64,000 nt of DNA from a plasmid. Under the pieces are notes generated by a model that saw only the letters and a program-made list of their open reading frames with translations, was not told where the DNA came from and did no database searches. The stretch lies in sequence record NZ_CP023526.1, one strand, 5' to 3'. The position numbers and the translations under genes are program-made. Below, piece after piece: positions 3,901-19,338 of the stretch; within the stretch, counting starts at the first letter, position 1; each line of letters begins with the position of its first letter.

Positions 3901-4056
3901 TACAACTCAACGAGTTACATCAGGAACGTAAACATGCCATTGAGGGGATCTGCAACATGGTGGGATCTCCAAATCAACGTTATATAAAACTATCAGAAGT
4001 ACCGCTATGTCTATAGTGAGGATACCGGGTCAGCTCTGCGCTTTCTCTATGCCGTA

Positions 4057-4320: not shown

Positions 4321-4646
4321 GTCAATGAGTGGCTGTTACGCTATCTGCTTCACTACAATGACCAGCCACACCGTTCACAGTCTCACCCACGTCTGGAAGA
4401 CAGGCTGACCCGCTTCCCTCCGGGTAAGCATCCGGTGAACTCATATTGACAGATCCGATGGGAGCAGCCTCAGGTTTCCCCGGCAACCGTTCGTCAGGTG
4501 GTGAAGTACTGAGTGAGGTATTCCACGCGTGTGGCGCTGGAACTGAGTCAGGTAAACTATGGCGATGAAGCCTTGTGGGAAGCGGGCTTCCGCTATTTAC
4601 GGACTCAGGCGCGCAAGTCCTTAGTGCGGATATCACAAGCTTTCTG

Positions 4647-6221
4647 TCAGACTCCTTCGCGCACGAAGACGAACCCCGGCAGCGGCAGCAACGCGTCCAG
4701 GTCCTCTTCCGGCCAGCCCGGTAACCGTTGCAGAACGTTCGTCAGCCAGGCATGTGGATCAAGACCGTTCATCTTCGCTGTTTCCAGTAGACTCATGATT
4801 TTCGCGGCACGCTCACCCGCTGCAACCGAACCGGCAAAGAGCCAGCTGGAGCGTCCCATCACCACAGATCTGATGGCCCTCTCACAGCGATTATTGTCCA
4901 GGGGTAACGCACCATCCTCCAGGAAGCGACTGAGGGTCACCCGGCGTTTTAGTGCATACGCGATCGCTTTACCCAGCGCGGAGCTATCCGGGCACGCATC
5001 TTTCTGCTGCTCCAGCCAGTGCCACAACTTGTCCAGCACGGGGCGGGCATAACGCTGTCGCCATTGACGGATCTTTTCCACCGGCCGGTGTCGGACCTTC
5101 TTTTCCAGCCGGTATAACCCGGCGATCTGTCTGACCGCCATCGCGGCGCGAGGATCCTTGCTCGCCTTATAAAGGTCGGCAAAGTTTCTACGGGCATGTG
5201 CCCGGCAACCTGTTAGCGCGATCCCTCTGTTTTGCCCGGCCAGGGTTTCATAGGCCGGATATCCGTCGACCACAAGATTTCCGGCCCAGTCCTTCAGGTA
5301 TGCCGCCGGGTACACGCTACTCCTACCGGGCTGACTGTCGAAGCAGACGACAGCAGGGCCGCTTTTTTCACCGCTGACGTAAGCCCACAGGTAGCCGGCA
5401 CGGGCTTTGCCGCCCTTTTTCGTATCCAGGATTTGCAGGGGCGTTTCATCGGCATGCAGCACATCGCATGTCAGCAGCATCCAATGCAGTGATTCCGCCA
5501 GTGGCCTCAGCGCCCCCCCCGCACGGCCGATCATATCGGCCATCGTGCTGACGGGCAGATGGATATCCGAGCGGGCCAGCACCGACTGCTGGCGGTACAG
5601 GGGCATATGGTCGCAGTGCTTGCTGATCACCACCTGGGCAATGAGTGACGCCTCTGCCACACCTTTCGGGATAATGTTTGCAGGCATATCACCGCTGACC
5701 ACCCGCTGGCAGCAGATACAGCCATACTGCGGGCGAACGTACCGGTTAACCACGACGCGAGCCGGGATATATTCCAGTTTTTCGCTCACCTCATCGCGGA
5801 TGTGACGCAGTTCGCCCTGGCAGTCAGGGCAGCTTTCGGTTGAGGCCGGTTCGATAGTTTTTGTGACACGCGGGAGATGAGCCGGGAGCGGTTTTCGTGC
5901 CGGACGTTCCGGGGCTGATTGTTCTTCGGCAGGGAGCAGCGTGTCCAGTTGCGCTTCAACTGCGGCGATATCCGCATCCATATCCTCTTCGAACAGGGAG
6001 CGTTGCATACCGGCCAGTGTTTCGCCCTTTTTACCGAACCGTTGCTGGCGGGCCAGTTTCAGTGCTTCTTCCAGGAGCTGTATACGTTGCAGGAGGCTGG
6101 CATTTTTCAGGCAAAGCTTTTCATTTTCTTCATTCTCAGCCATCACTTTTTGCACCATGGCAAGTGCCAGAGTGCGAAGTTCCTCGATGTCACTGGTGGT
6201 GGTGAGAACAGAGATATCCAT
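4647..6221 (-). CDS. tnpC: IS66 TnpC transposase
   Basis: 525-aa ORF from MDISVLTTT. It has the zinc-ribbon cysteines (CPDCQG...CICC) and the DDE transposase region typical of IS66 TnpC. Confidence 0.85.
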   Translation of the reverse strand: MDISVLTTTSDIEELRTLALAMVQKVMAENEENEKLCLKNASLLQRIQLLEEALKLARQQRFGKKGETLAGMQRSLFEEDMDADIAAVEAQLDTLLPAEEQSAPERPARKPLPAHLPRVTKTIEPASTESCPDCQGELRHIRDEVSEKLEYIPARVVVNRYVRPQYGCICCQRVVSGDMPANIIPKGVAEASLIAQVVISKHCDHMPLYRQQSVLARSDIHLPVSTMADMIGRAGGALRPLAESLHWMLLTCDVLHADETPLQILDTKKGGKARAGYLWAYVSGEKSGPAVVCFDSQPGRSSVYPAAYLKDWAGNLVVDGYPAYETLAGQNRGIALTGCRAHARRNFADLYKASKDPRAAMAVRQIAGLYRLEKKVRHRPVEKIRQWRQRYARPVLDKLWHWLEQQKDACPDSSALGKAIAYALKRRVTLSRFLEDGALPLDNNRCERAIRSVVMGRSSWLFAGSVAAGERAAKIMSLLETAKMNGLDPHAWLTNVLQRLPGWPEEDLDALLPLPGFVFVREGV

Positions 6222-6263
6222 GCGGGTAATTATACCGCACATGGTACGGATAATCATTATTGT

Positions 6264-6644
6264 TCATAAGGTTATGTTGGTTTTTGGTGCAGATTCAGCT
6301 GCGTCCCGGGAGATCCACGTTGTGAGGTCGTGGCCTTTTACCTGTTGCCAGTCAACGCCGCTGACAAGCCAGCTGAACTCATCAGGTGTGAGGGACCAGG
6401 CGGCCTCATTTGCCCGGGGCCAGCGGAAGTGACCCTTGTGCAGGCGGCGAACGCACAGCCAGACGCCGTGCTTATCCCAGCGCAGCACCTTGATGCGCGA
6501 ACGGGCTTTATTGGTGAAGACGAAGGCAGCCCCTTCATGCCACGACGCATTGAGTTCATCCTGGACATACTGTGTCAGGGTGTCGATCCCCCGTCCCATA
6601 TCAACGGGTTTTACAGCGAGAAAGACATTCTCAGGCGTCAGCAT
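6264..6644 (-). CDS. tnpB: IS66 TnpB (orf2)
   Basis: IS66 orf2-like sequence (...VFTNKARSRIKVLRWDKHGVWLCVRRLHKGHFRWP...) starting at MLTPENV. Confidence 0.8.
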   Translation of the reverse strand: MLTPENVFLAVKPVDMGRGIDTLTQYVQDELNASWHEGAAFVFTNKARSRIKVLRWDKHGVWLCVRRLHKGHFRWPRANEAAWSLTPDEFSWLVSGVDWQQVKGHDLTTWISRDAAESAPKTNITL

Positions 6645-6960
6645 ATTTGAGAGCCCTGAAGACATCGGTGAGTTGCGAAGGATGGCAGCACATGCGTATC
6701 CCGCCGGGGAGAAAGAGGGTTACAGGCTCATTTACTCCAGGTGAAAAAGGTTCTGCAGGCGGCGTAGCTTCAGTGATATGTACGGGCAGCACAGCGGGTT
6801 TGCTGGCGCGTCGTTCAGCCCTGGCGACATCCTGAGGCCATTCACGAAAGGATGTGAAGGGAATATCGTTGAGTTCACAATACTGATGACGGGTAAGACC
6901 GCTGGCCCGCCAGCTGGCGACATGTTGTTTTTTCTGCTCAATGAACCATCGTTGTTTCAT
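6631..6960 (-). CDS. tnpA: IS66 TnpA (orf1)
   Basis: 109-aa ORF at the tnpA position of the IS66 element, with a 14-nt overlap onto tnpB. Confidence 0.8.
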   Translation of the reverse strand: MKQRWFIEQKKQHVASWRASGLTRHQYCELNDIPFTSFREWPQDVARAERRASKPAVLPVHITEATPPAEPFSPGVNEPVTLFLPGGIRMCCHPSQLTDVFRALKYADA

Positions 6961-7037
6961 CAGTAAACATCCTTCGTCAGTTAAAGATGCTGCTGATATT
7001 ACCCGCTGAAATAATTAAGAAAATATGAGTTCACCGG

Positions 7038-7226
7038 ATGCTTACGGTAGAGCAGGATCATCGGGGCATTAAGCGCATCACGAAATCCACGCTCGGATTT
7101 AAATCATTTGCATCTGCGGAAGCGACAATCGCGGGAGTTGAACTTCATCGGATGCTTAAAAAAGGACAGCTGGAAAACACAGGAGATACTCCAGCCTGGA
7201 AACAGTTCCTTTCGTTAGCAGCCTAA
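7038..7226 (+). pseudogene. IS6-family transposase C-terminal fragment
   Basis: MLTVEQDHRGIKRITKSTLGFKSFASAEATIAGVELHRMLKKGQL matches the IS26 Tnp C-terminus. Confidence 0.6.
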
Positions 7227-11395: not shown

Positions 11396-12238
11396 CTACT
11401 TCTTAACAGGGTCGGTCAGACCAGCCGCTTTATTGATGACCATCTGCAGCACTGCCTGGTCAGTCATGCCTGGGATCACCGTGATCGTCTCTGCAGTAGC
11501 GCCGATGGCTGGCATCACCACCAGGCCCGGCGTACCGGTGAGCCCGATGTCCGTGGCCAGCTGCCCGGTGAGGGTCAGCTCAGCCTGCACGTCCCTGTCC
11601 TTCGCTATCGCCGACGGGGCGATCTTCATGGCCCCGGCCGCAGTGCGGATATCATTCTCCGTCAGCGCCCCCTCGTTATGCCCGGTGGCATACAGTTCAT
11701 TATGGTACGCGAGGTACGCCTCTGATCCCTTCTGCTGCCAGATTTTCAGGCCTGTCTCTGCCGCCAGGCGGGAGGCAGGCCATCTGTCGCCGAAAATGGG
11801 CCACTCACGGAACACAAAGCGCACCTGCGGGTTGGCTTTCATCAGCTTCGTCAGATCCGGGGCCAGATGGCTGCAGTAAACACACTGGTAGTCGAAGAAG
11901 AGCGTCACCACCACCTTCGCATCCGCAGGACCGTAGGACGGCGCATGCGGGTCATGCAGCAGTTCAGACTGGTACGCCAGCGCCCCTTCCGTCATCGCCT
12001 TCACCGCCGCCGCTTCCTGACGGGCCTGCAAGGTCTCACTGACCTTTACCAACACCTCCGGGTGAGCAATCAGCCAGTCAGCCGCCACCGCTCCGATCCG
12101 GGCCTCTTGTTCCGGGCTGAACGGCGAGGCCGGTTTTGCCACCTCTGCGTGGGAAAAATGGCTGATTCCCTGGGCAACCACCCCACCCAGGACGCCGCTC
12201 AGCAGAATGGCTGCGGCAATGTTTGATTTTTTAAGCAT
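11396..12238 (-). CDS. DsbA/DsbC-like thioredoxin-fold disulfide oxidoreductase of conjugative-element type
   Basis: Signal peptide, CxxC motif (CVYC), and a thioredoxin-fold layout. GC-rich (about 62 %) block with other ICE-like hypothetical proteins. Confidence 0.6.
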   Translation of the reverse strand: MLKKSNIAAAILLSGVLGGVVAQGISHFSHAEVAKPASPFSPEQEARIGAVAADWLIAHPEVLVKVSETLQARQEAAAVKAMTEGALAYQSELLHDPHAPSYGPADAKVVVTLFFDYQCVYCSHLAPDLTKLMKANPQVRFVFREWPIFGDRWPASRLAAETGLKIWQQKGSEAYLAYHNELYATGHNEGALTENDIRTAAGAMKIAPSAIAKDRDVQAELTLTGQLATDIGLTGTPGLVVMPAIGATAETITVIPGMTDQAVLQMVINKAAGLTDPVKK

Positions 12239-12307
12239 GATGTTTCCTGTAAATAAATAATAATGTGATACCTCTGCCGGGAACCCCGGTGGCCCTGTGG
12301 GCCTTGA

Positions 12308-12604
12308 TTATTCGCGGGGCAACAGGCGGGATGACACCGACTTGCACCACTGAAAATCCTTCGTCACCGCCTCAGGCTCGGCGATATCCTTTATTTTACG
12401 GGGACGCCCGCGCGGTACTTTTCTGTATTTCGCCTGTTTCACCGCCTGCGCATGATGCGCGGCGGCTTCCTCCGCCAACTGTCGTCTCCGGGCAGATGAG
12501 AGAACATGGCCCAGCGTTCTTTCCTCCTGCGTTATCAGCGCGTTCAGCAAAAAACTTTCGTACTCCGTCAGGCCTTCCGTCAGCTGGTGATACGTGTCTG
12601 TCAT
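12308..12604 (-). CDS. Hypothetical protein of the conjugative-element remnant (98 aa)
   Basis: Start MTDTYHQ with RBS gggagaggg. The longer upstream extension of the six-frame ORF overlaps the neighbouring gene. Confidence 0.4.
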   Translation of the reverse strand: MTDTYHQLTEGLTEYESFLLNALITQEERTLGHVLSSARRRQLAEEAAAHHAQAVKQAKYRKVPRGRPRKIKDIAEPEAVTKDFQWCKSVSSRLLPRE

Positions 12605-12824
12605 GACTTTCCCTCTCCCGTAATTTCCCGTGGCATGCTGCTGGCAGCGTGCCACTCTGGCTTCGGCGTACGCCCGCCCGCCTGCCCGCGGGGCCTGTTT
12701 CGCCACCCAGGACCAGACCCGGCGGCAGGCTTCTACCGTCCGGCCAGTTTTAGCCTCACCGCCACCAGGTCCCGCCCGCAGCGGCTGCTTATCTTCGCAC
12801 CTACCGTCAAAAGAAAGTTCCGAT

Positions 12825-13589
12825 TCAGTCTTCAAGTGATTTCTCCTTCACGATGTCCCGTTCAGCCTGGTTCATCCGGGCTGCGGACGGCGGGTCTGTC
12901 TCCGTCCCGCGCTCCTCCAGCTGCCGTTCAGCCTGTTTGTCCTGTGACAGGCGGGAGACCGAAGCTATATCCCGGTCCAGGCGCTGCTGCGCCGTCCTCT
13001 GCTCCCGTGAAAGGATGGCCGCCAGGGCTGCCACCTCGGTATCCTGGCCACCCATCTCATCCTTCAGCAGAGTAAACACCCTGTCCAACGTCGCCGGATC
13101 GGTCTTCTCCGTTTGCGGCATATTTTCTATCAGGAGGGCCGCCAGTTTCTCTGCCTCCCGCTTCGCCACCGCTTCCAGGTCCTGAAGCACCGGGATAACC
13201 GCCGTTTCGGGCGTGCTCGCCCTCACGGCCTGAGCTGACACTGCTGCCTCGTCGATAAGGTTATCCGCCCCGGTGAGCCGACTAAGGTTGTGCGGCAGGT
13301 CATCCCCTTCCAGACGCACAATCACCCCGCTGGCCGGATAGTCGCGGGCAAGTTCCAGCCCCGCAGGCAGGCTGTCGGCCACCCGCACCTCGCCGTTGCG
13401 GCTCTGCTGAATGCCGGCAAAGCGCGCATCCTCCCGACCGGTGACCCGGTGCGCCCCGGAGAACGCCTGTCCGCCGTGCTCATCCTGGGTGAGACTGAAT
13501 ATCACCATCCCCGCCCGGTTGCCGTTGGTGTCCCACAGCGCAAACCCCACGCCCGGCTCTGGCTGACGACGGGTGGCAGGGACAAACAC
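12825..13589 (-). CDS. Hypothetical conjugative-element protein (254 aa, coiled-coil-rich C-terminus)
   Basis: Long ORF in the GC-rich block, co-oriented with its neighbours. Confidence 0.45.
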   Translation of the reverse strand: MFVPATRRQPEPGVGFALWDTNGNRAGMVIFSLTQDEHGGQAFSGAHRVTGREDARFAGIQQSRNGEVRVADSLPAGLELARDYPASGVIVRLEGDDLPHNLSRLTGADNLIDEAAVSAQAVRASTPETAVIPVLQDLEAVAKREAEKLAALLIENMPQTEKTDPATLDRVFTLLKDEMGGQDTEVAALAAILSREQRTAQQRLDRDIASVSRLSQDKQAERQLEERGTETDPPSAARMNQAERDIVKEKSLED

Positions 13590-13717
13590 GCCCTGCGATA
13601 CCCCCTGCGCCAGCCCGTGGCTTTTCAGCAGGGCGCGCCCGGCCGCGACGCGGTCCAGCGGTTTTGCCCAGGACAGGATACCCTCCGCCGCCCGGGCGGC
13701 GTGGTCCTCGCTCTCCT

Positions 13718-14050
13718 TCAGGTAGTCATGCGCCGTCCCGTCGCCTTTGTGCTTCGCCAGTTCGGCCAGCCAGCCCTCCCGGTTGTCCGTCTATAGGTGG
13801 CGATGGCGACCACCACCTCCCCAATCAGCAGCCACTTCATCAGGGAGGAGTCCTGCCCGAAGGTGCCCTTCACCGCGTCATCCCCGACCTTGAGCAGGTC
13901 TTTGGTTGCCCCGGCAAACGCTGCATGCTGCAGCACCAGGAACAGCGCGCAGGCCAGCAGGGCCATCACCAGAACGTGCGCCACCTCCCGGCGGAACACC
14001 TTTTGTTTCACGGCGGAGAAAGCGCCGCGATGACTCAGTACCACTTCCAT
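13718..14050 (-). CDS. Hypothetical membrane protein of the conjugative-element remnant
   Basis: A hydrophobic segment (VLVMALLACALFLVLQHAAFAG) within a 110-aa ORF. It may be truncated or frameshifted. Confidence 0.35.
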   Translation of the reverse strand: MEVVLSHRGAFSAVKQKVFRREVAHVLVMALLACALFLVLQHAAFAGATKDLLKVGDDAVKGTFGQDSSLMKWLLIGEVVVAIATYRRTTGRAGWPNWRSTKATGRRMTT

Positions 14051-14131
14051 TATTGAATCCTTCTGAAACAGTGAGTTAAAACAACGTTGTTACAGCGGAC
14101 CGGGTAACCTGCCCGCTGTAAAAATGGTGTC

Positions 14132-14314
14132 TCAGGGGCGCCGTAAACCGGCCTTACCCGACGGGCACCTCGCCCGATGCTGCTCTATCTGCACCAGGAG
14201 GTCCGCGATATCGCAACTGCGGGCGAGCGCATCCCGGCACAGACGCTGGTAGCGCAGCTTCAGCGCCGAGAGGGCAATCACCGGTTCACGCCAGTGTTTT
14301 ATTTCCGGGGACAT
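14132..14314 (-). CDS. Small hypothetical protein (60 aa)
   Basis: ORF from MSPEIKHW, lying just downstream of conserved leader element copy 1. Confidence 0.3.
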   Translation of the reverse strand: MSPEIKHWREPVIALSALKLRYQRLCRDALARSCDIADLLVQIEQHRARCPSGKAGLRRP

Positions 14315-14367
14315 ACGAACCTCCAGTGAAAATAAGCCGGGAGAGAAAGCCAAAATAAGAGAGAAGC

Positions 14368-14500
14368 CCCGCCGGGAAACAGGCATGCTACCGCCCCAGG
14401 GTGTCACACCTGTCGTGGGGCAGAGATGCCCCGACGGGGTTCGGGCAAAGGGAAGCCCGCCGCTTTTTCGGGAATAAAAAAGCGGGTAATGCAAAAACAC
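14368..14500 (-). promoter_or_regulatory. Conserved ~120-bp leader element, copy 1 (identical 35-mer catgctaccgccccagggtgtcacacctgtcgtgg plus a covarying hairpin)
   Basis: Shares the 35-mer and downstream similarity with 16352-16495. Both copies lie 5' of minus-strand genes. Confidence 0.5.
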
Positions 14501-15017
14501 GTTTTTGGGGACGGACTGCGACCGGCGTCAGCTTGTCGTGCCGACCGGGCTGAACACTACAGCGTCAGAATGTCTTGTGGATCACCAGTCAGCACAGGGA
14601 TGGTCTTCAGGCTGTGGTAGAGTCGAAGTTGCGCCTCAGCAGTGCGGGTACGTCCGGCCTTCTTCGGGCCAGCGTCAGCAGATCGCTGGCGGGCCGCATC
14701 AGCAGAATGCGGGTACTCACCGGGTTATTGGCCGGGTGCTCTGGATCGTTGATGGGTGTGGTCATAAACATTTCTCCTGGTTAGGTGGAGAAATTCTTTC
14801 ATAAAAAAACTCTTTTTTTACTTGGGCACCTGCCCAATGTGAATTTATACAGTGTTTTCTATCCCTTTAAATTAAAAGAAATTATGCCTTTTTCATAAAT
14901 GAAGATATATTTTCTATTAATTATGTTTTTGATAAATATCAATTTCTAGATCGCGGCCATCACCATAAATATCTTGATTACTACAATATGGTGGGGAACA
15001 TCCCCACCATATTGTTC

Positions 15018-15764
15018 CTATCCAAGAGGCAATAGTGTGGGCTCAGAAACAAACTGCTCAGGAATGATATTAAGCCAGCCATAGTGCCTGGAAAAGTGTA
15101 AGAGATCCTCTCTGTCAGAGAGATTAAGCTTCAGGTAGATACTACGAAGGCATTGCTCTATCGCCTGTTTGGATACTTTCATGTATTCAGCAATCCACCG
15201 GTTGGACCTGCCTGCGGCTGTTAGCCAGGCGACGACCCATTCCTTCCTTGTCAAAACAGACGCAGGTGACACCCCGGTGAATCTGCCGGAATCAATAATA
15301 TTGAGGGGGGCCTTTTTTAGTTCCGGAATAACGACCGGCAACCAGTCAACAGATTGTTCGAGGGAGGAGAGCTCCGTAAGGAAAATCAGGGTACATTTAT
15401 TCCCTTCAAGCAGAAGGGGAACCAGTCTGACGATGAATGACGTAACACCATTGATGTCATTGAAATATCCCCATGAGAAAAGAAGCGTCTCTTTCCCGGA
15501 CGCCATCGTTCGTTTTTCAAATTCATGCATCAGACTGATGTTATGCGCTGGGGCAGCAAAAACTTCCAGATCGGTCATTCCGGCAACGGAAATCACTCGG
15601 GGTAAAAAACGGGCTGAAAACGCAAGACTGGTATCCATCAAATAATGATCTGCGGATTTTATGTACCATATCCCACTGAAATTTTTATAAAAATCATAAA
15701 AATCATGATGAAATCCTTGTGATCCGGCGGTGAGATCCATAGGATCGAGAGTAGCCATAACCAT
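15018..15764 (-). CDS. LuxR-family transcriptional regulator (C-terminal GerE-type HTH)
   Basis: C-terminal ...VSKQAIEQCLRSIYLKLNLSDREDLLHF is a LuxR/GerE HTH. The N-terminal domain is unassigned. Confidence 0.6.
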   Translation of the reverse strand: MVMATLDPMDLTAGSQGFHHDFYDFYKNFSGIWYIKSADHYLMDTSLAFSARFLPRVISVAGMTDLEVFAAPAHNISLMHEFEKRTMASGKETLLFSWGYFNDINGVTSFIVRLVPLLLEGNKCTLIFLTELSSLEQSVDWLPVVIPELKKAPLNIIDSGRFTGVSPASVLTRKEWVVAWLTAAGRSNRWIAEYMKVSKQAIEQCLRSIYLKLNLSDREDLLHFSRHYGWLNIIPEQFVSEPTLLPLG

Positions 15765-16016
15765 CCTCCTTAAACTGAGTGGTTTTTGGTTAGCTCGTAT
15801 GATGGGGGTCCAGCCCATCATACGAGCGCAACATGATATTTTGAGGCAGCATTATTTCGTGCTGCCCGGTCACTTTATCACAGCGATAAGATACCGCCAG
15901 GGTTATTTCTGTCCGTTGAATACTCATGTATTCCCCCCAGAATCATGCAGGTGCAGCGTTTATTTACTGCAGGCCTTGAATCGTTTATAGGCGTTGAATA
16001 ACCGTGCCCGGTAACC

Positions 16017-16322
16017 TTATTGAATAAGAGCCTGTACCAGGATCAGGTTATAAAAGCCTTTCCTGTAACAAACTGAAATAACTTCATTGTAATTTCGTAC
16101 ACCGAAAGCGATTATTAGTTCGCGCAGACAGCGATTGATCTCTCGGCCATGCAGGCCGGTCATTTCAGTCACACCGGAACGTGAAAATCCTTTCAGAAAG
16201 AAAAAGAGCACTCTCGCCTGCTCATCACTCAGGTGGTAGCCAGGATAATATGCCGTCGGCATCATCATTTTCTCTACCACCACGTCATCACGGATAAGCT
16301 CACACATTTCTTTGTAATTCAT
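16017..16322 (-). CDS. Small LuxR/GerE-type HTH protein (101 aa)
   Basis: LSDEQARVLFFFLKGFSRSGVTEMTGLHGREINRCLRELIIAFGV is HTH-like. It is preceded by leader element copy 2. Confidence 0.45.
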   Translation of the reverse strand: MNYKEMCELIRDDVVVEKMMMPTAYYPGYHLSDEQARVLFFFLKGFSRSGVTEMTGLHGREINRCLRELIIAFGVRNYNEVISVCYRKGFYNLILVQALIQ

Positions 16323-16351
16323 GTCCTGCTCTCTGCATTACTTCCCGTTCA

Positions 16352-16495
16352 GCCGGGAAAGGATTATTTAAAAAAAAGACATGCTACCGCCCCAGGGTGT
16401 CACACCTGTCGTGGTCCGCTGTGGGACCGACGTTTTTGGCAAAAGGAAACCCGCCGGATTTTTCGGTAAAGAAAAATTCAGGTAACACAAAATAT
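16352..16495 (-). promoter_or_regulatory. Conserved ~120-bp leader element, copy 2
   Basis: The same 35-mer. The following hairpin differs in sequence but keeps its pairing (ggggcagagatgcccc versus ggtccgctgtgggacc). Confidence 0.5.
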
Positions 16496-16709
16496 ATTTT
16501 CAGCACCAAATTCATCGTGATGATGAATATTTTTGCATCTCTTTGAAATTAAGACTTATCGCTATTTTTCTCTCCGCTCTCAAAAGAGGGCGAAATATAC
16601 CCCTTAATTTCCCGTCAAGTAAATTGATCTACATCAATAAACTACACTGAGTGTACTGGACAACAATTTTTAAATGTGATTGGCGAAAAAAGTGTAGCCA
16701 GGTACACTT

Positions 16710-17096
16710 TTGGAAATGAGGTCGGACCAGATGAAAGAAAACACCCACCCTGCTATCGAAGCACTCAGGGAAGAAATCCATCATCAGGGACTGACATATG
16801 AAGACATTGCGCGACAAGCACCAATGTCCCTTAACCACCTTAAAAACCTGATGAGTGGCCGCACCCGACTGCGTGTTGAAGACAGGGATGCTATCTGCCG
16901 GGCGATGAACGTCGATCCACAGGATATCTTCCTGCAACGAAAGGACTATATAGAAAACCTCTACTTCATTGATATCCGACACCTTCCGCCAGATTTGCAG
17001 GATGCCATCAGGATGATCATCGGCGACCTCACGCTGCATGCCAGACTGCTGGAGATGCATACGAAAAGGCGAAAGCGGCGCGCTATAAAGAAGTAA
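16710..17096 (+). CDS. XRE-family (Cro/CI-type HTH) regulator
   Basis: GLTYEDIARQAPMSLNHLKNLMSGRTRLRVEDRDAICRAMNV is an XRE HTH. The overlapping antisense ORF 16629-17261 is rejected. Confidence 0.55.
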   Translation: MEMRSDQMKENTHPAIEALREEIHHQGLTYEDIARQAPMSLNHLKNLMSGRTRLRVEDRDAICRAMNVDPQDIFLQRKDYIENLYFIDIRHLPPDLQDAIRMIIGDLTLHARLLEMHTKRRKRRAIKK

Positions 17097-17453
17097 TTTC
17101 CGGATACAGATGAGGGAAGCATGCCAGTGGAGGTGACTTTCTGCACGCTGGCACGCTCTGCCATTCTGGCGGCGACCAGCCGCGGAGGTCAGTTTCTCCA
17201 GGTAAATGACCTGCTTTTTCGGTAAGAAACCAACGAAATCAGAGGACAGAGAAGAAGCCATTCATTTACCCGCCCATGACCGGGTCATTGCCCGATCCAT
17301 AGCAAAACAGTAAAGTATACTACTCCATACCCTTATGACCTTTTAATGCTGATTAAAGGGCCATAAGACGCCTACATCCATCCCATTTAATCACGACAAA
17401 TGAGCATTTAAATGCACCATTCTGTATATTATACTATATAGAGAAATACTATA

Positions 17454-18110
17454 ATGCAAGAGAAGCACAATCTGATACCTCGCGATGAGGGTATGTCATT
17501 GAATAACATCGGTAAAAACCTTACCCACTTAATGCAACTGAAGGGGATCGACTCACAACAACTCAGTGACCGGATCGGGGTCGGCATCGCGACGATTAAA
17601 AATTTAAGAAGAGGCGTGGGCAACCCAACGATTTCAACCCTGCTGTCTATTGCAGATTTTTTCAATGTCAGCATCGGCGCACTAACCGATCAACTGCTGG
17701 ATGGCGATAAAACCATCAGCGCTAACAACGCCCGGGTTCTGCCACTGATAAAGTTTAATGAAACAGAAGCGTTCCTGGAAAAGAAGGTACTGCACACTGA
17801 CACTTACACAACCGAAGTAGATAATGAGGAGGATGATTCTCTCTTTGTCGTTGAAATAACCAGCAGGGTCCTCCAGCCAGAACTGGACAGAGGAACCCTC
17901 TGTGTTATATCCAGAACGGAAGAATATTATGACGGAGACATCGTTCTTCTGAAGATCAAGGACTATCCACTCTGTTTTCGCCGTATCTTCATCGGGAATG
18001 ATGGATATCAATTTTGTAATATCTCCATGGGAACCGAAATGGATATGAAACAATATACTGATTTTAAGATAATCGGCGTGATGTTAAAAAAAATAAACAG
18101 GTTGAGATAA
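17454..18110 (+). CDS. CI/LexA-like repressor: N-terminal XRE HTH plus a C-terminal S24-peptidase-like domain (catalytic Lys not evident)
   Basis: N-terminal HTH (LTHLMQLKGIDSQQLSDRIGVGIATIKNLRRG). The C-terminal 110 aa follow the beta-rich S24/LexA pattern (GDIVLLKIKD...). Confidence 0.6.
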   Translation: MQEKHNLIPRDEGMSLNNIGKNLTHLMQLKGIDSQQLSDRIGVGIATIKNLRRGVGNPTISTLLSIADFFNVSIGALTDQLLDGDKTISANNARVLPLIKFNETEAFLEKKVLHTDTYTTEVDNEEDDSLFVVEITSRVLQPELDRGTLCVISRTEEYYDGDIVLLKIKDYPLCFRRIFIGNDGYQFCNISMGTEMDMKQYTDFKIIGVMLKKINRLR

Positions 18111-18608
18111 ATGAAAATACTTTCAACCCTGAAGAGGTTGATTATTGATCTGTATACACCTGCATACAGCTATACTCTTGAAAGAAATAATCAGGGCGCA
18201 GAAAAGGATGTCTGGATTTTCAAAGAGTACGGGACACACTCTTTTGTAAAAAAGAGCTGGAAGCAACTCCAGGAAAGCAATTTTCTTCAGCAGGTCAATC
18301 CTAAAGACATTGCCTATATAGCAGAAGCCGAGGCAGAAAAAAAACTTGAAGAATCAAAGATGTATATAACTGAGGAGAAACGAAACAGAGTATGGGTGCT
18401 AAAAAGCTCCCAGGAAAAGCTGTCTGTCACGGGTGATGAATTTATCAATAATCCTGAACTCATTGATAAAACAGAGAGCGCTGATGCTACCCGGATAGCT
18501 TTTCATACCGGATTAAAAAAGGGGCTGCTCATTTCAGCGACTCTGCATACAGGTCAACCGGAAAAACCCCAAACAAAAGGAGGCGGAAGACTGACAATCG
18601 TTAAATGA
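18111..18608 (+). CDS. Hypothetical protein (165 aa), translationally coupled to the CI-like repressor
   Basis: The start codon directly abuts the upstream stop. No recognisable motif. Confidence 0.45.
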   Translation: MKILSTLKRLIIDLYTPAYSYTLERNNQGAEKDVWIFKEYGTHSFVKKSWKQLQESNFLQQVNPKDIAYIAEAEAEKKLEESKMYITEEKRNRVWVLKSSQEKLSVTGDEFINNPELIDKTESADATRIAFHTGLKKGLLISATLHTGQPEKPQTKGGGRLTIVK

Positions 18609-19338
18609 TAAAGGTTTTAATAACGGGCCTGTCGGCCAGTGATATGACAGAGAATCCGCTATTCTCAACAATTTTCACACTTGTTGCCCCGTTTTCCCAC
18701 TGATGACAGACTGCAGGGGAAACCGATAATAAAATGTCTCCCGTTTTGCGTTGAAAAAGTGTATGCGCATGGCCGGAACCAATAAACCTGACGCCGTTTC
18801 TTCGACAAACGCTCAAAAGTTCGTGACCATTTAACAGCAAACACTCATCAACCAAAGGCGTACCAACGGGTAGCAGGTGATGATGCAAAAAAACAGCCGT
18901 CTTTCTGTCTGAATCACTCAGCTGACTTTCAAGTTGATTGAGTTCCTGAGGTGAAATAAGGCCATAGTCGTCCCCCTTCACTACGCTGTTAACGAACAAA
19001 ATGCGCCATTGGCTGTCGGAAAGCTGGAAAGCATCAACATTATTGATGCCCCCGTGTTGTTGATGTGCCAGTAAGACATGTTCAGCACTATCATGGTTTC
19101 CCAAAAGATAAGCATAAGGAATATCGAGCAATTCCATTTTGCTAAAAAAATAGCGATACGACTCAACACTGCCATCATGGCTGATATCGCCGCTGACGAC
19201 AATCCCGTCAACATTTAGCAGATCGCGATGCGATATGATGTATGAAACAACCGAGTCAAAAGACGCCCGGTTTTTAATCGCCGCAGCAGATGAGGTATCA
19301 GAAAAAAGATGAATATCTGTGAGCTGTAAAATACGCAT
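18601..19338 (-). CDS. Calcineurin-like metallophosphoesterase, CpdA/Icc-like (class III 3',5'-cyclic-nucleotide phosphodiesterase family)
   Basis: Motifs D-x-H (LTDIHL), GDxxxxG (SGDISHDG), GNHD, HHH and GHAH, in the order seen in E. coli CpdA. AT-rich codon usage. Confidence 0.65.
   Translation of the reverse strand: MRILQLTDIHLFSDTSSAAAIKNRASFDSVVSYIISHRDLLNVDGIVVSGDISHDGSVESYRYFFSKMELLDIPYAYLLGNHDSAEHVLLAHQQHGGINNVDAFQLSDSQWRILFVNSVVKGDDYGLISPQELNQLESQLSDSDRKTAVFLHHHLLPVGTPLVDECLLLNGHELLSVCRRNGVRFIGSGHAHTLFQRKTGDILLSVSPAVCHQWENGATSVKIVENSGFSVISLADRPVIKTFII

Follow-up and report, generated by a model that had tools for sequence, protein, structure and literature searches.

A 64,000-nucleotide (nt) stretch of sequence record NZ_CP023526.1, referred to here as the window, carries on its minus strand a decayed F-type conjugation locus of Cedecea neteri, recognised from Pfam domains, in which a leader element of about 105 nt occurs twice. 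The 35-mer shared by both copies is probably an ops/JUMPStart-like loading site for RfaH within a structured leader of F-type tra genes, binding of RfaH being predicted from the sequence. The ops element is a signal in the non-template strand of long-operon leaders that pauses RNA polymerase and recruits RfaH (PMC13596475; PMC11880322; PMC5995543), and its consensus has been given as GGCGGTAGnnTG (PMC13596475; PMC11880322). The rfaH gene is present in about 84% of Enterobacteriaceae genomes (PMC7593976). Expression of the tra genes of F and R1 needs both RfaH and ops (PMC13596475; PMC7303359), and conjugation of F falls by four orders of magnitude without RfaH (PMC13596475).

The repeated element ends in an exact ops sequence

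The 35-mer CATGCTACCGCCCCAGGGTGTCACACCTGTCGTGG occurred exactly twice in the window, at 14384-14418 (copy A) and 16380-16414 (copy B), on the plus strand in both cases, and none of 100 shuffled sequences gave such a match. Pairwise alignment extended the similarity to about 105 nt (14384-14492 versus 16380-16488), with an abrupt stop on both sides. Over the aligned stretch including flanks the mean column identity was about 74%, in contrast to full identity over the 35-mer. The genes that follow have the minus strand as their sense strand; on it the 35-mer becomes CCACGACAGGTGTGACACCCTGGGGCGGTAGCATG, and its last 12 nt, GGCGGTAGCATG, match the ops consensus exactly. Only two matches to this pattern were found in the 64 kb, against 0.06 expected, and both, on the minus strand, form the 3' end of the repeat, at 14384-14395 in copy A (14395->14384) and 16380-16391 in copy B (16391->16380). 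All bases relevant to RfaH are contained in it, namely C3, G4, G5, T6, A7 and G8, mutation of which abolishes or reduces recruitment and among which C3 and G8 form a pair, together with the pause dinucleotide T11-G12 (PMC5995543).

Both ops copies point in the same direction as the minus-strand genes that follow them and belong to the non-template strand of the untranslated leader. A first-pass annotation made from the sequence alone had placed open reading frames on the minus strand past the two copies, at 14132-14314 and 16017-16322; these exist, and their start codons (14314 and 16322) lie 69 and 57 nt from the end of the repeat in copies A and B, respectively. The gene calls of the source record put no gene over either copy, and they give the first reading frame past copy A as a protein of 60 amino acids (orf60) and not as an extended frame of 122. 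Since 1-nt insertions or deletions also separate near-identical homologues of the element, a coding role can be excluded on sequence grounds, and the concern that the element might map inside a longer real coding sequence is contradicted.

Immediately past ops the two copies differ. A run of eight U residues (16370-16377, minus strand) begins 2 nt past the ops of copy B, is absent from copy A and from the relatives described below, and could form a pause or termination point directly past the RfaH loading site. A terminator scan indicated a terminator-like site just 3' of the copy A ops (14383->14368), which differs from copy B and from the relatives.

The ops site is conserved upstream of traA in related plasmids

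Searched alone with BLAST, the element was found in IncFII-type plasmids of Enterobacter, Klebsiella, Escherichia and Pantoea; a megablast search of E. coli genomes gave no match. A further 6 genome loci and 21 metagenome loci came from a pattern scan, and the module is known from about 30 related plasmid and metagenome loci. Positions 1-9 and 11 of ops were unchanged in 30 of 30 homologues, position 10 was G or A, and position 12 was G, C, T or A. This pattern of variation is consistent with published mutational data, since positions 9 and 10 are free and a G12C change still allows recruitment, the central bases being essential (PMC5995543).

In annotated relatives, the element always occupied the gap just upstream of traA, past traY, or past the LuxR-type regulator where traY was unannotated, the gene order in these plasmids being traM, LuxR, (traY), element, traA, traL, traE, traK. 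A tblastn survey of the relatives found traA downstream in about half, where the contig reached it and the pilin was detectable, and a homologue of the LuxR-type regulator of the window upstream of the leader in most, at 30-40% identity. In all loci with sequence past the element and a traA that could be recognised, ops was located about 90-160 nt upstream of traA and pointed towards it.

The homologues fell into two clades. Clade 1, which includes both window copies, has the full module, and clade 2, of the Enterobacter mori / Klebsiella variicola type, has the 35-mer and the first hairpin only. As judged by eye, copy B is closest to the metagenome locus L013 and copy A to the Enterobacter/Klebsiella type. 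A divergent xre gene stands on the far side of the module in Pantoea stewartii, in L009 and L013, and at copy B of the window, and in these loci the module therefore lies between the promoter and the first gene.

Between ops and traA the relatives have a long, very stable hairpin on the minus strand, with arms such as CAGATAATCCCCCGCGGC / GTCGCGGGGGCGTATCTG in L002 (about 3905-3990). It was also present in L001, L003, L006, L011, L013 and L027, its sequence changing by lineage while its pairing was kept, and after it comes a small hairpin, GGGCnTATnTGCCC, that has a U-rich tail. RNAfold gave about -29 to -52 kcal/mol for the leader from just past ops to the start of traA in these relatives. 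Copy A of the window retains only the first ~30 nt of this stretch and then diverges into orf60.

Some clade-2 loci contain a second GGCGGTAG, exemplified by GGCGGTAGCCTG at 6716-6727 of L012 and at the same site in L019, L021, L031 and L032. It is on the strand opposite to the leader, about 2.1 kb away, and, by eye, inside a coding sequence, probably a transglycosylase (SLT) gene; this ops-like site was set aside as probably a coding coincidence.

The leader contains four hairpins whose pairing is maintained

Upstream of ops, the minus strand of the module can be folded into four hairpins, numbered H1 to H4 away from ops. H1 (14397-14412 in copy A; 16393-16408, with the same sequence, in copy B) lies just 5' of ops and pairs CAGG with CCTG around an 8-nt loop, an overlapping register being the palindrome GGTGTCACACC at 14400-14410. 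The CAGG...CCTG pairing was unchanged in 30 of 30 homologues, and in either register (CAGG/CCUG, or GGUG/CACC with a triloop) H1 ends 1-4 nt before GGGCGGUAG. The palindrome, GGNGTCACN'CC in general form, showed symmetric double substitutions (T/A, A/T, C/G) across homologues, one of which distinguishes two loci with 98.4% identity over 1 kb. It is broken in L006 and in the L011 group, where only the invariant CAGG/CCTG pairing is left. The possibility that H1, about 12 nt away from the pause site, acts as a pause hairpin was considered and dropped, the ops pause being of the backtrack type and hairpin-independent (PMC5995543).

The initial description of an identical 35-mer followed by a hairpin with preserved pairing and altered sequence was borne out, and it holds in 18 distinct homologues. 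This hairpin, H2, spans 14412-14435 in copy A (GTCG-TG-GGGCA-GAGA-TGCCC-CGAC) and 16408-16431 in copy B (GTCG-TG-GTCC-GCTGTG-GGAC-CGAC). The outer stem GTCG/CGAC is common to both, and the inner stems are GGGCA/TGCCC and GTCC/GGAC, respectively. On inspection, the outer stem was kept among the homologues and at least five lineages had different inner stems, all of which pair; the closest relative of the copy B hairpin was that of L013. H3 is a small G+C hairpin (CGGGC/GCCCG) at 14442-14459 in copy A and a weak one at 16438-16452 in copy B, with 3 pairs and a folding energy of only -2.6 kcal/mol. Its core pairs were invariant in the 18 homologues, and in copy A it is terminator-like on the plus strand only. 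The A/U-rich stem-loop seen earlier in both copies is present as H4, at 14460-14485 in copy A (arms CCGCTTTTT/AAAAAGCGG) and 16454-16482 in copy B (arms GGATTTTTC/GAAAAATTC, with flanking C-G pairs). Every clade-1 homologue has an H4 stem of 9-11 base pairs, with at least six different stems, all pairing, and loops of 6-11 nt.

When MAFFT alignments of either strand were folded with RNAalifold, the stems were misaligned and the consensus was weak, and a covariance model was used instead, built from the minus-strand alignment with a hand-set structure for H4, H3 and H2. The model recovered all copies at 45-137 bits. Among 18 distinct full-length copies, standard pairs filled 84% of cells, versus 38-54% with slid partners, changes on both sides occurred in 8 of 23 pairs, and none of 500 shuffles reached the observed covariation score; because the alignment was fitted to the model, these figures somewhat overstate the case. 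From these comparisons of sequence, pairing is conserved despite sequence change and H1-H4 are real structures.

The strand on which the hairpins act is indicated less uniformly. Counts of G-U versus A-C pairs and folding energies disagreed from hairpin to hairpin: in many homologues the plus-strand RNA gave slightly more stable folds for H2 and H4, whereas for H3 and the H1/ops region the minus-strand RNA was the more stable. The hairpins were assigned to the sense strand solely because of the orientation of ops and of the genes. H2-H4 are without a sense-strand U tract within the repeat, and no conserved sense-strand G+C hairpin with a U tract was found 5' of ops in the homologues, as an intrinsic-terminator attenuator would require.

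Comparison with known RfaH-dependent and F-like leaders

Plasmid F carries its ops, GGCGGTAGCGTG, between traV and traR. The signal is of the same 12-nt type as GGCGGTAGCATG here, and both are found in the non-template strand of an F-type tra operon, in intergenic sequence that is left untranslated. The layout of the F traV-traR spacer is also as in the module, with a hairpin, then CGGCGGGCTT, a small hairpin and ops, and this spacer (L033 7718-7840) gave a weak full-length match of 16.9 bits to the covariance model of the module. These similarities hint, at the level of sequence, that the whole leader and not only ops may be ancestral and have moved within the operon. In contrast to F, in which ops is about 5 kb into the operon (PMC13596475), the site here and in about 30 relatives is directly upstream of traA. 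Furthermore, F-like plasmids have one ops each in the published view, whereas two are present in the window, one of which precedes regulator genes. F combines a non-LuxR TraJ with FinP, whereas plasmids with the module have a LuxR/GerE-type regulator and the window is without a FinP match.

JUMPStart, like the module, has the sequence GGGGCGGUAGCRUG after a short hairpin, in the leader at the 5' end of an operon that depends on RfaH; its upstream half differs in sequence, and H2-H4 of the module are not part of it. A search of Rfam, which the first-pass annotation had proposed, yielded nothing over 12-19 kb of the window at E<=1, and JUMPstart (RF01707) appeared only in very narrow scans and below threshold. 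Copy A scored 11.7 bits against it on the minus strand and copy B 19.6 bits, the latter over the full length of the family (16380-16421, E 0.0095, 50-nt search). It was the only relevant Rfam family to align, H1 corresponding to the JUMPstart hairpin, and H1 supplies the hairpin immediately 5' of GGGGCGGUAGCGUG by which JUMPstart is recognised.

In IncX plasmids, a conjugation operon depends on an RfaH-type factor recruited in the leader near the promoter, at the ops-like site of PrfaH (PMC11880322). These plasmids supply the factor themselves and transfer by a type-P/VirB system, whereas the window has no rfaH-like gene and carries the canonical consensus of chromosomal RfaH. The 5' untranslated region of traJ with its FinP antisense RNA is likewise a structured leader with at least two stem-loops in an F-like regulatory region, and its loops and stems vary between plasmids. 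However, it sits at the activator gene, whereas the module in the relatives is found at traA and its conserved block is ops. Neither FinP (RF00107) nor traJ_5 (RF00243) matched at E<=1 in 12000-19000 of the window; both were found in F by the same search.

Genetic context of the two copies

The order of features on the minus strand is traM (20659-20309), then, past an xre gene on the plus strand, copy B, orf101, a LuxR-type regulator gene, traY, copy A, orf60, traA and a traI fragment. The two genes past the copies had been described as unrelated small regulator genes, which proved imprecise. orf101 (16017-16322), the first gene past copy B, has no Pfam hit, but by tblastn its product resembles the C-terminal part of a LuxR-type regulator from a plasmid, at 32% identity; the gene calls of Cedecea neteri include it, and its product is identical to an uncharacterised protein of that species. 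It is followed by the gene of a LuxR/GerE-family regulator (15018-15821, Pfam GerE), which holds the position of traJ in F. By contrast, orf60 (14132-14314), preceded by a GGAGG Shine-Dalgarno sequence, has no recognisable regulator domain in Pfam and stands before traA. The only annotated homologues of orf60 are small hypothetical genes on plasmids of Erwinia, Serratia and Pantoea. In Erwinia billingiae pEB170 (L034 2793-3668), the homologue lies directly past a plasmid-borne rfaH inside an F-type tra operon. This arrangement suggests that the orf60-like protein is functionally linked to RfaH-controlled transfer genes, and it was counted in favour of a role for RfaH at the module.

traA (13718-14050, minus strand) encodes an F-type pilin (Pfam TraA, E 1.6e-12). 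Directly past it lies a TraI helicase fragment (12825-13589, minus strand) with the C-terminal domain only, as identified with Pfam. traY (14560-14771, minus strand), located by tblastn with the TraY proteins of relatives, is interrupted by a frameshift: the tblastn match covers 14706-14560 in one frame, the N-terminal part is in the frame of a 54-amino-acid open reading frame at 14607-14771, and the conserved C-terminal part (…AGRTRTAEAQLRLYHSLKTIPVLTGDPQDILTL) is in another frame and ends at 14560. The window has lost the region that extends from traL into traI and includes most of the latter; in F it measures about 30 kb. Because the locus is on a 722-kb Cedecea neteri contig, the transfer region is probably an integrated, decaying element. 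The tra remnant is probably non-transferable.

On the plus strand, the Xre-type helix-turn-helix gene (16710-17096) is divergent from copy B, and beside it a gene at 17454-18110 encodes a LexA/CI-like repressor with helix-turn-helix and peptidase S24 domains; both proteins are possible extra regulators of the transfer genes. Promoter scans found a single sigma-70-like match upstream of copy B, at 16594-16623 on the minus strand (TTTACT-18-TATATT), which fits the consensus weakly and is about 100 nt upstream; apart from it, no sigma-70-like hexamers were found inside or beside the module.

Further along the window, at ~4600-7050, an IS66-family insertion sequence (tnpB and transposase) showed 72-91% identity to plasmid copies from Enterobacter, Serratia and E. 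coli, a further sign that the region is mosaic and rearranged.

Proposed function and alternative explanations

If the site is used as its sequence predicts, RNA polymerase would start upstream of the module and transcribe the minus strand through H4 to H1. The start for copy B may be the weak TTTACT-18-TATATT match (16623->16594), and copy A may be transcribed by read-through from upstream genes. The polymerase would pause at GGCGGTAGCATG, where the non-template strand would recruit the host NusG paralogue RfaH; a polymerase bearing RfaH would resist Rho and pausing, and RfaH would help ribosomes to load, so that the downstream genes are expressed. In intact relatives, the module before traA would serve traA and the roughly 30-kb tra operon. 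In the window, copy A would serve orf60-traA, and copy B stands before orf101 and the gene of the LuxR-type TraJ analogue, so that the activator, too, would depend on RfaH for its expression. H1-H4 would most likely be structures of the nascent leader RNA, and they may plausibly deny Rho access to the untranslated leader until RfaH loads, or stabilise the 5' end.

The early suggestion of a shared regulatory element in the 5' untranslated region therefore stands in part: the element appears to act in cis in the untranslated leader of minus-strand genes, while its most conserved part, ops, would be read as non-template DNA. The accompanying proposals of an attenuator RNA or a small RNA were not supported, ops being read in that form by a host elongation factor (PMC5995543).

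Several points weigh against the assignment to RfaH. Neither copy reached the JUMPstart gathering score of 35 bits; nevertheless, the F segment with its accepted ops likewise gave no hit at the gathering score, and a sub-threshold score is therefore uninformative alone. The tra operon is truncated and traY frameshifted, and copy A may no longer be under selection here. No sigma-70 consensus was found upstream of copy A, and no transcription start can be placed. tblastn detected no rfaH in the 64 kb, and the factor has to be assumed from the host chromosome. Finally, RfaH leaves H2-H4 unaccounted for, and their own sequences do not fix their strand. A possible but doubtful extension is that the H4-H3-H2-H1 array (~105 nt) is a distinct, uncatalogued structured leader RNA working with ops in LuxR-regulated F-like plasmids, where it would shield the leader from Rho or set pausing or processing of the pilin mRNA, and that Cedecea neteri recruited a second copy before its traJ-like activator operon.

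The module might instead be a DNA operator or promoter, at which the LuxR-type TraJ analogue, TraY or Xre binds the palindrome GGNGTCACN'CC or the H4 inverted repeat and controls initiation of traA and orf101-luxR, a function that could coexist with ops. A LuxR-type gene adjoins the module in most loci, the palindrome changes symmetrically, and in several loci the module occupies a divergent intergenic region that must hold a promoter. However, near-identical leaders adjoin LuxR proteins that are only 40-46% identical, which argues that the reader of the signal is a host factor and not plasmid-specific, and a symmetric double substitution in the palindrome arose between two loci whose LuxR proteins are 99.6% and TraY proteins 100% identical. 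A spacing between the H4 arms that varies from 6 to 11 nt is more readily reconciled with single-stranded folding than with a dimer bound to duplex DNA, the module has no sigma-70-like hexamers within it or beside the palindrome, and ops would work only if transcribed, which would place the start upstream of at least the 35-mer. We consider an operator unlikely; the earlier suggestion of one for a LuxR-type protein is disfavoured by sequence comparison in particular, as the leader does not track LuxR divergence and the palindrome lacks promoter hexamers.

The precedent of FinP at traJ in F-like plasmids raises the question of an antisense RNA on the plus strand, which would start between traA and ops, cover ops and H1, terminate at the U tract of H2 or H3 and repress the leader by pairing. 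H2 of copy B and H3 of copy A, L003 and L013 are indeed terminator-like on that strand, for which the folding energies of H2 and H4 noted above also show a slight preference. Yet the U tract past H2 is absent from copy A, L006, L011 and the whole second clade, the substitutions that maintain pairing in the GGNG/CN'CC palindrome are the ones that disrupt the first stem-loop required by such an RNA, no plus-strand promoter was predicted, and H3 and the H1/ops region are more stable on the minus strand. With FinP and traJ_5 undetected in the window and the F control positive, this explanation is very unlikely.

That hairpin pairing is kept while sequence changes, and that no curated RNA family covers H2-H4, would also suit a leader RNA that regulates in cis by itself, for example as a riboswitch or protein-binding attenuator, independently of RfaH and with an incidental ops match. 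This appears highly improbable, as the invariant block is exactly ops and the two preceding G residues, as in JUMPStart, fixed and free positions follow the requirements of RfaH, the conserved sense-strand hairpin and U tract 5' of ops are missing, and F-like tra operons are known RfaH targets. Least probable of all is a recent local duplication without function of its own: although the copies lie 2 kb apart in a rearranged region with a deleted tra operon and a frameshifted traY, they are identical over the 35-mer at only ~74% overall identity, differ in H2, H3 and H4, group with different relatives (L013 and the Enterobacter/Klebsiella type) and belong to a module kept in about 30 independent loci, so that mere duplication without covariation is contradicted by the homologues.

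Implications for F-like plasmids

The covarying leader thus appears, from its sequence, to be explained by known biology, as an ops/JUMPStart-type RfaH site of an F-like tra operon. Compared with a textbook ops, it is unusual in its position before traA, in a hairpin array that lies outside Rfam, in the LuxR-type regulator that replaces TraJ/FinP, and in its two copies. Within an incomplete coverage of the literature, no description was found of ops upstream of traA in LuxR-type F-like plasmids.

RfaH and ops allow the expression of very long transfer, capsule and toxin operons. A branch of F-like plasmids, from Enterobacter, Klebsiella, Pantoea and Erwinia and including many from clinical isolates, has ops at the start of the pilus genes, in a larger structured leader. 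If the assignment is true, copy B would put the master regulator of transfer under the control of RfaH, a wiring undescribed in F-like elements, to which only one ops each is ascribed. The hairpin array and this path from RfaH to the activator are the points of remaining interest, and the family of plasmids with ops before traA would offer a defined target for the RfaH dependence of transfer.

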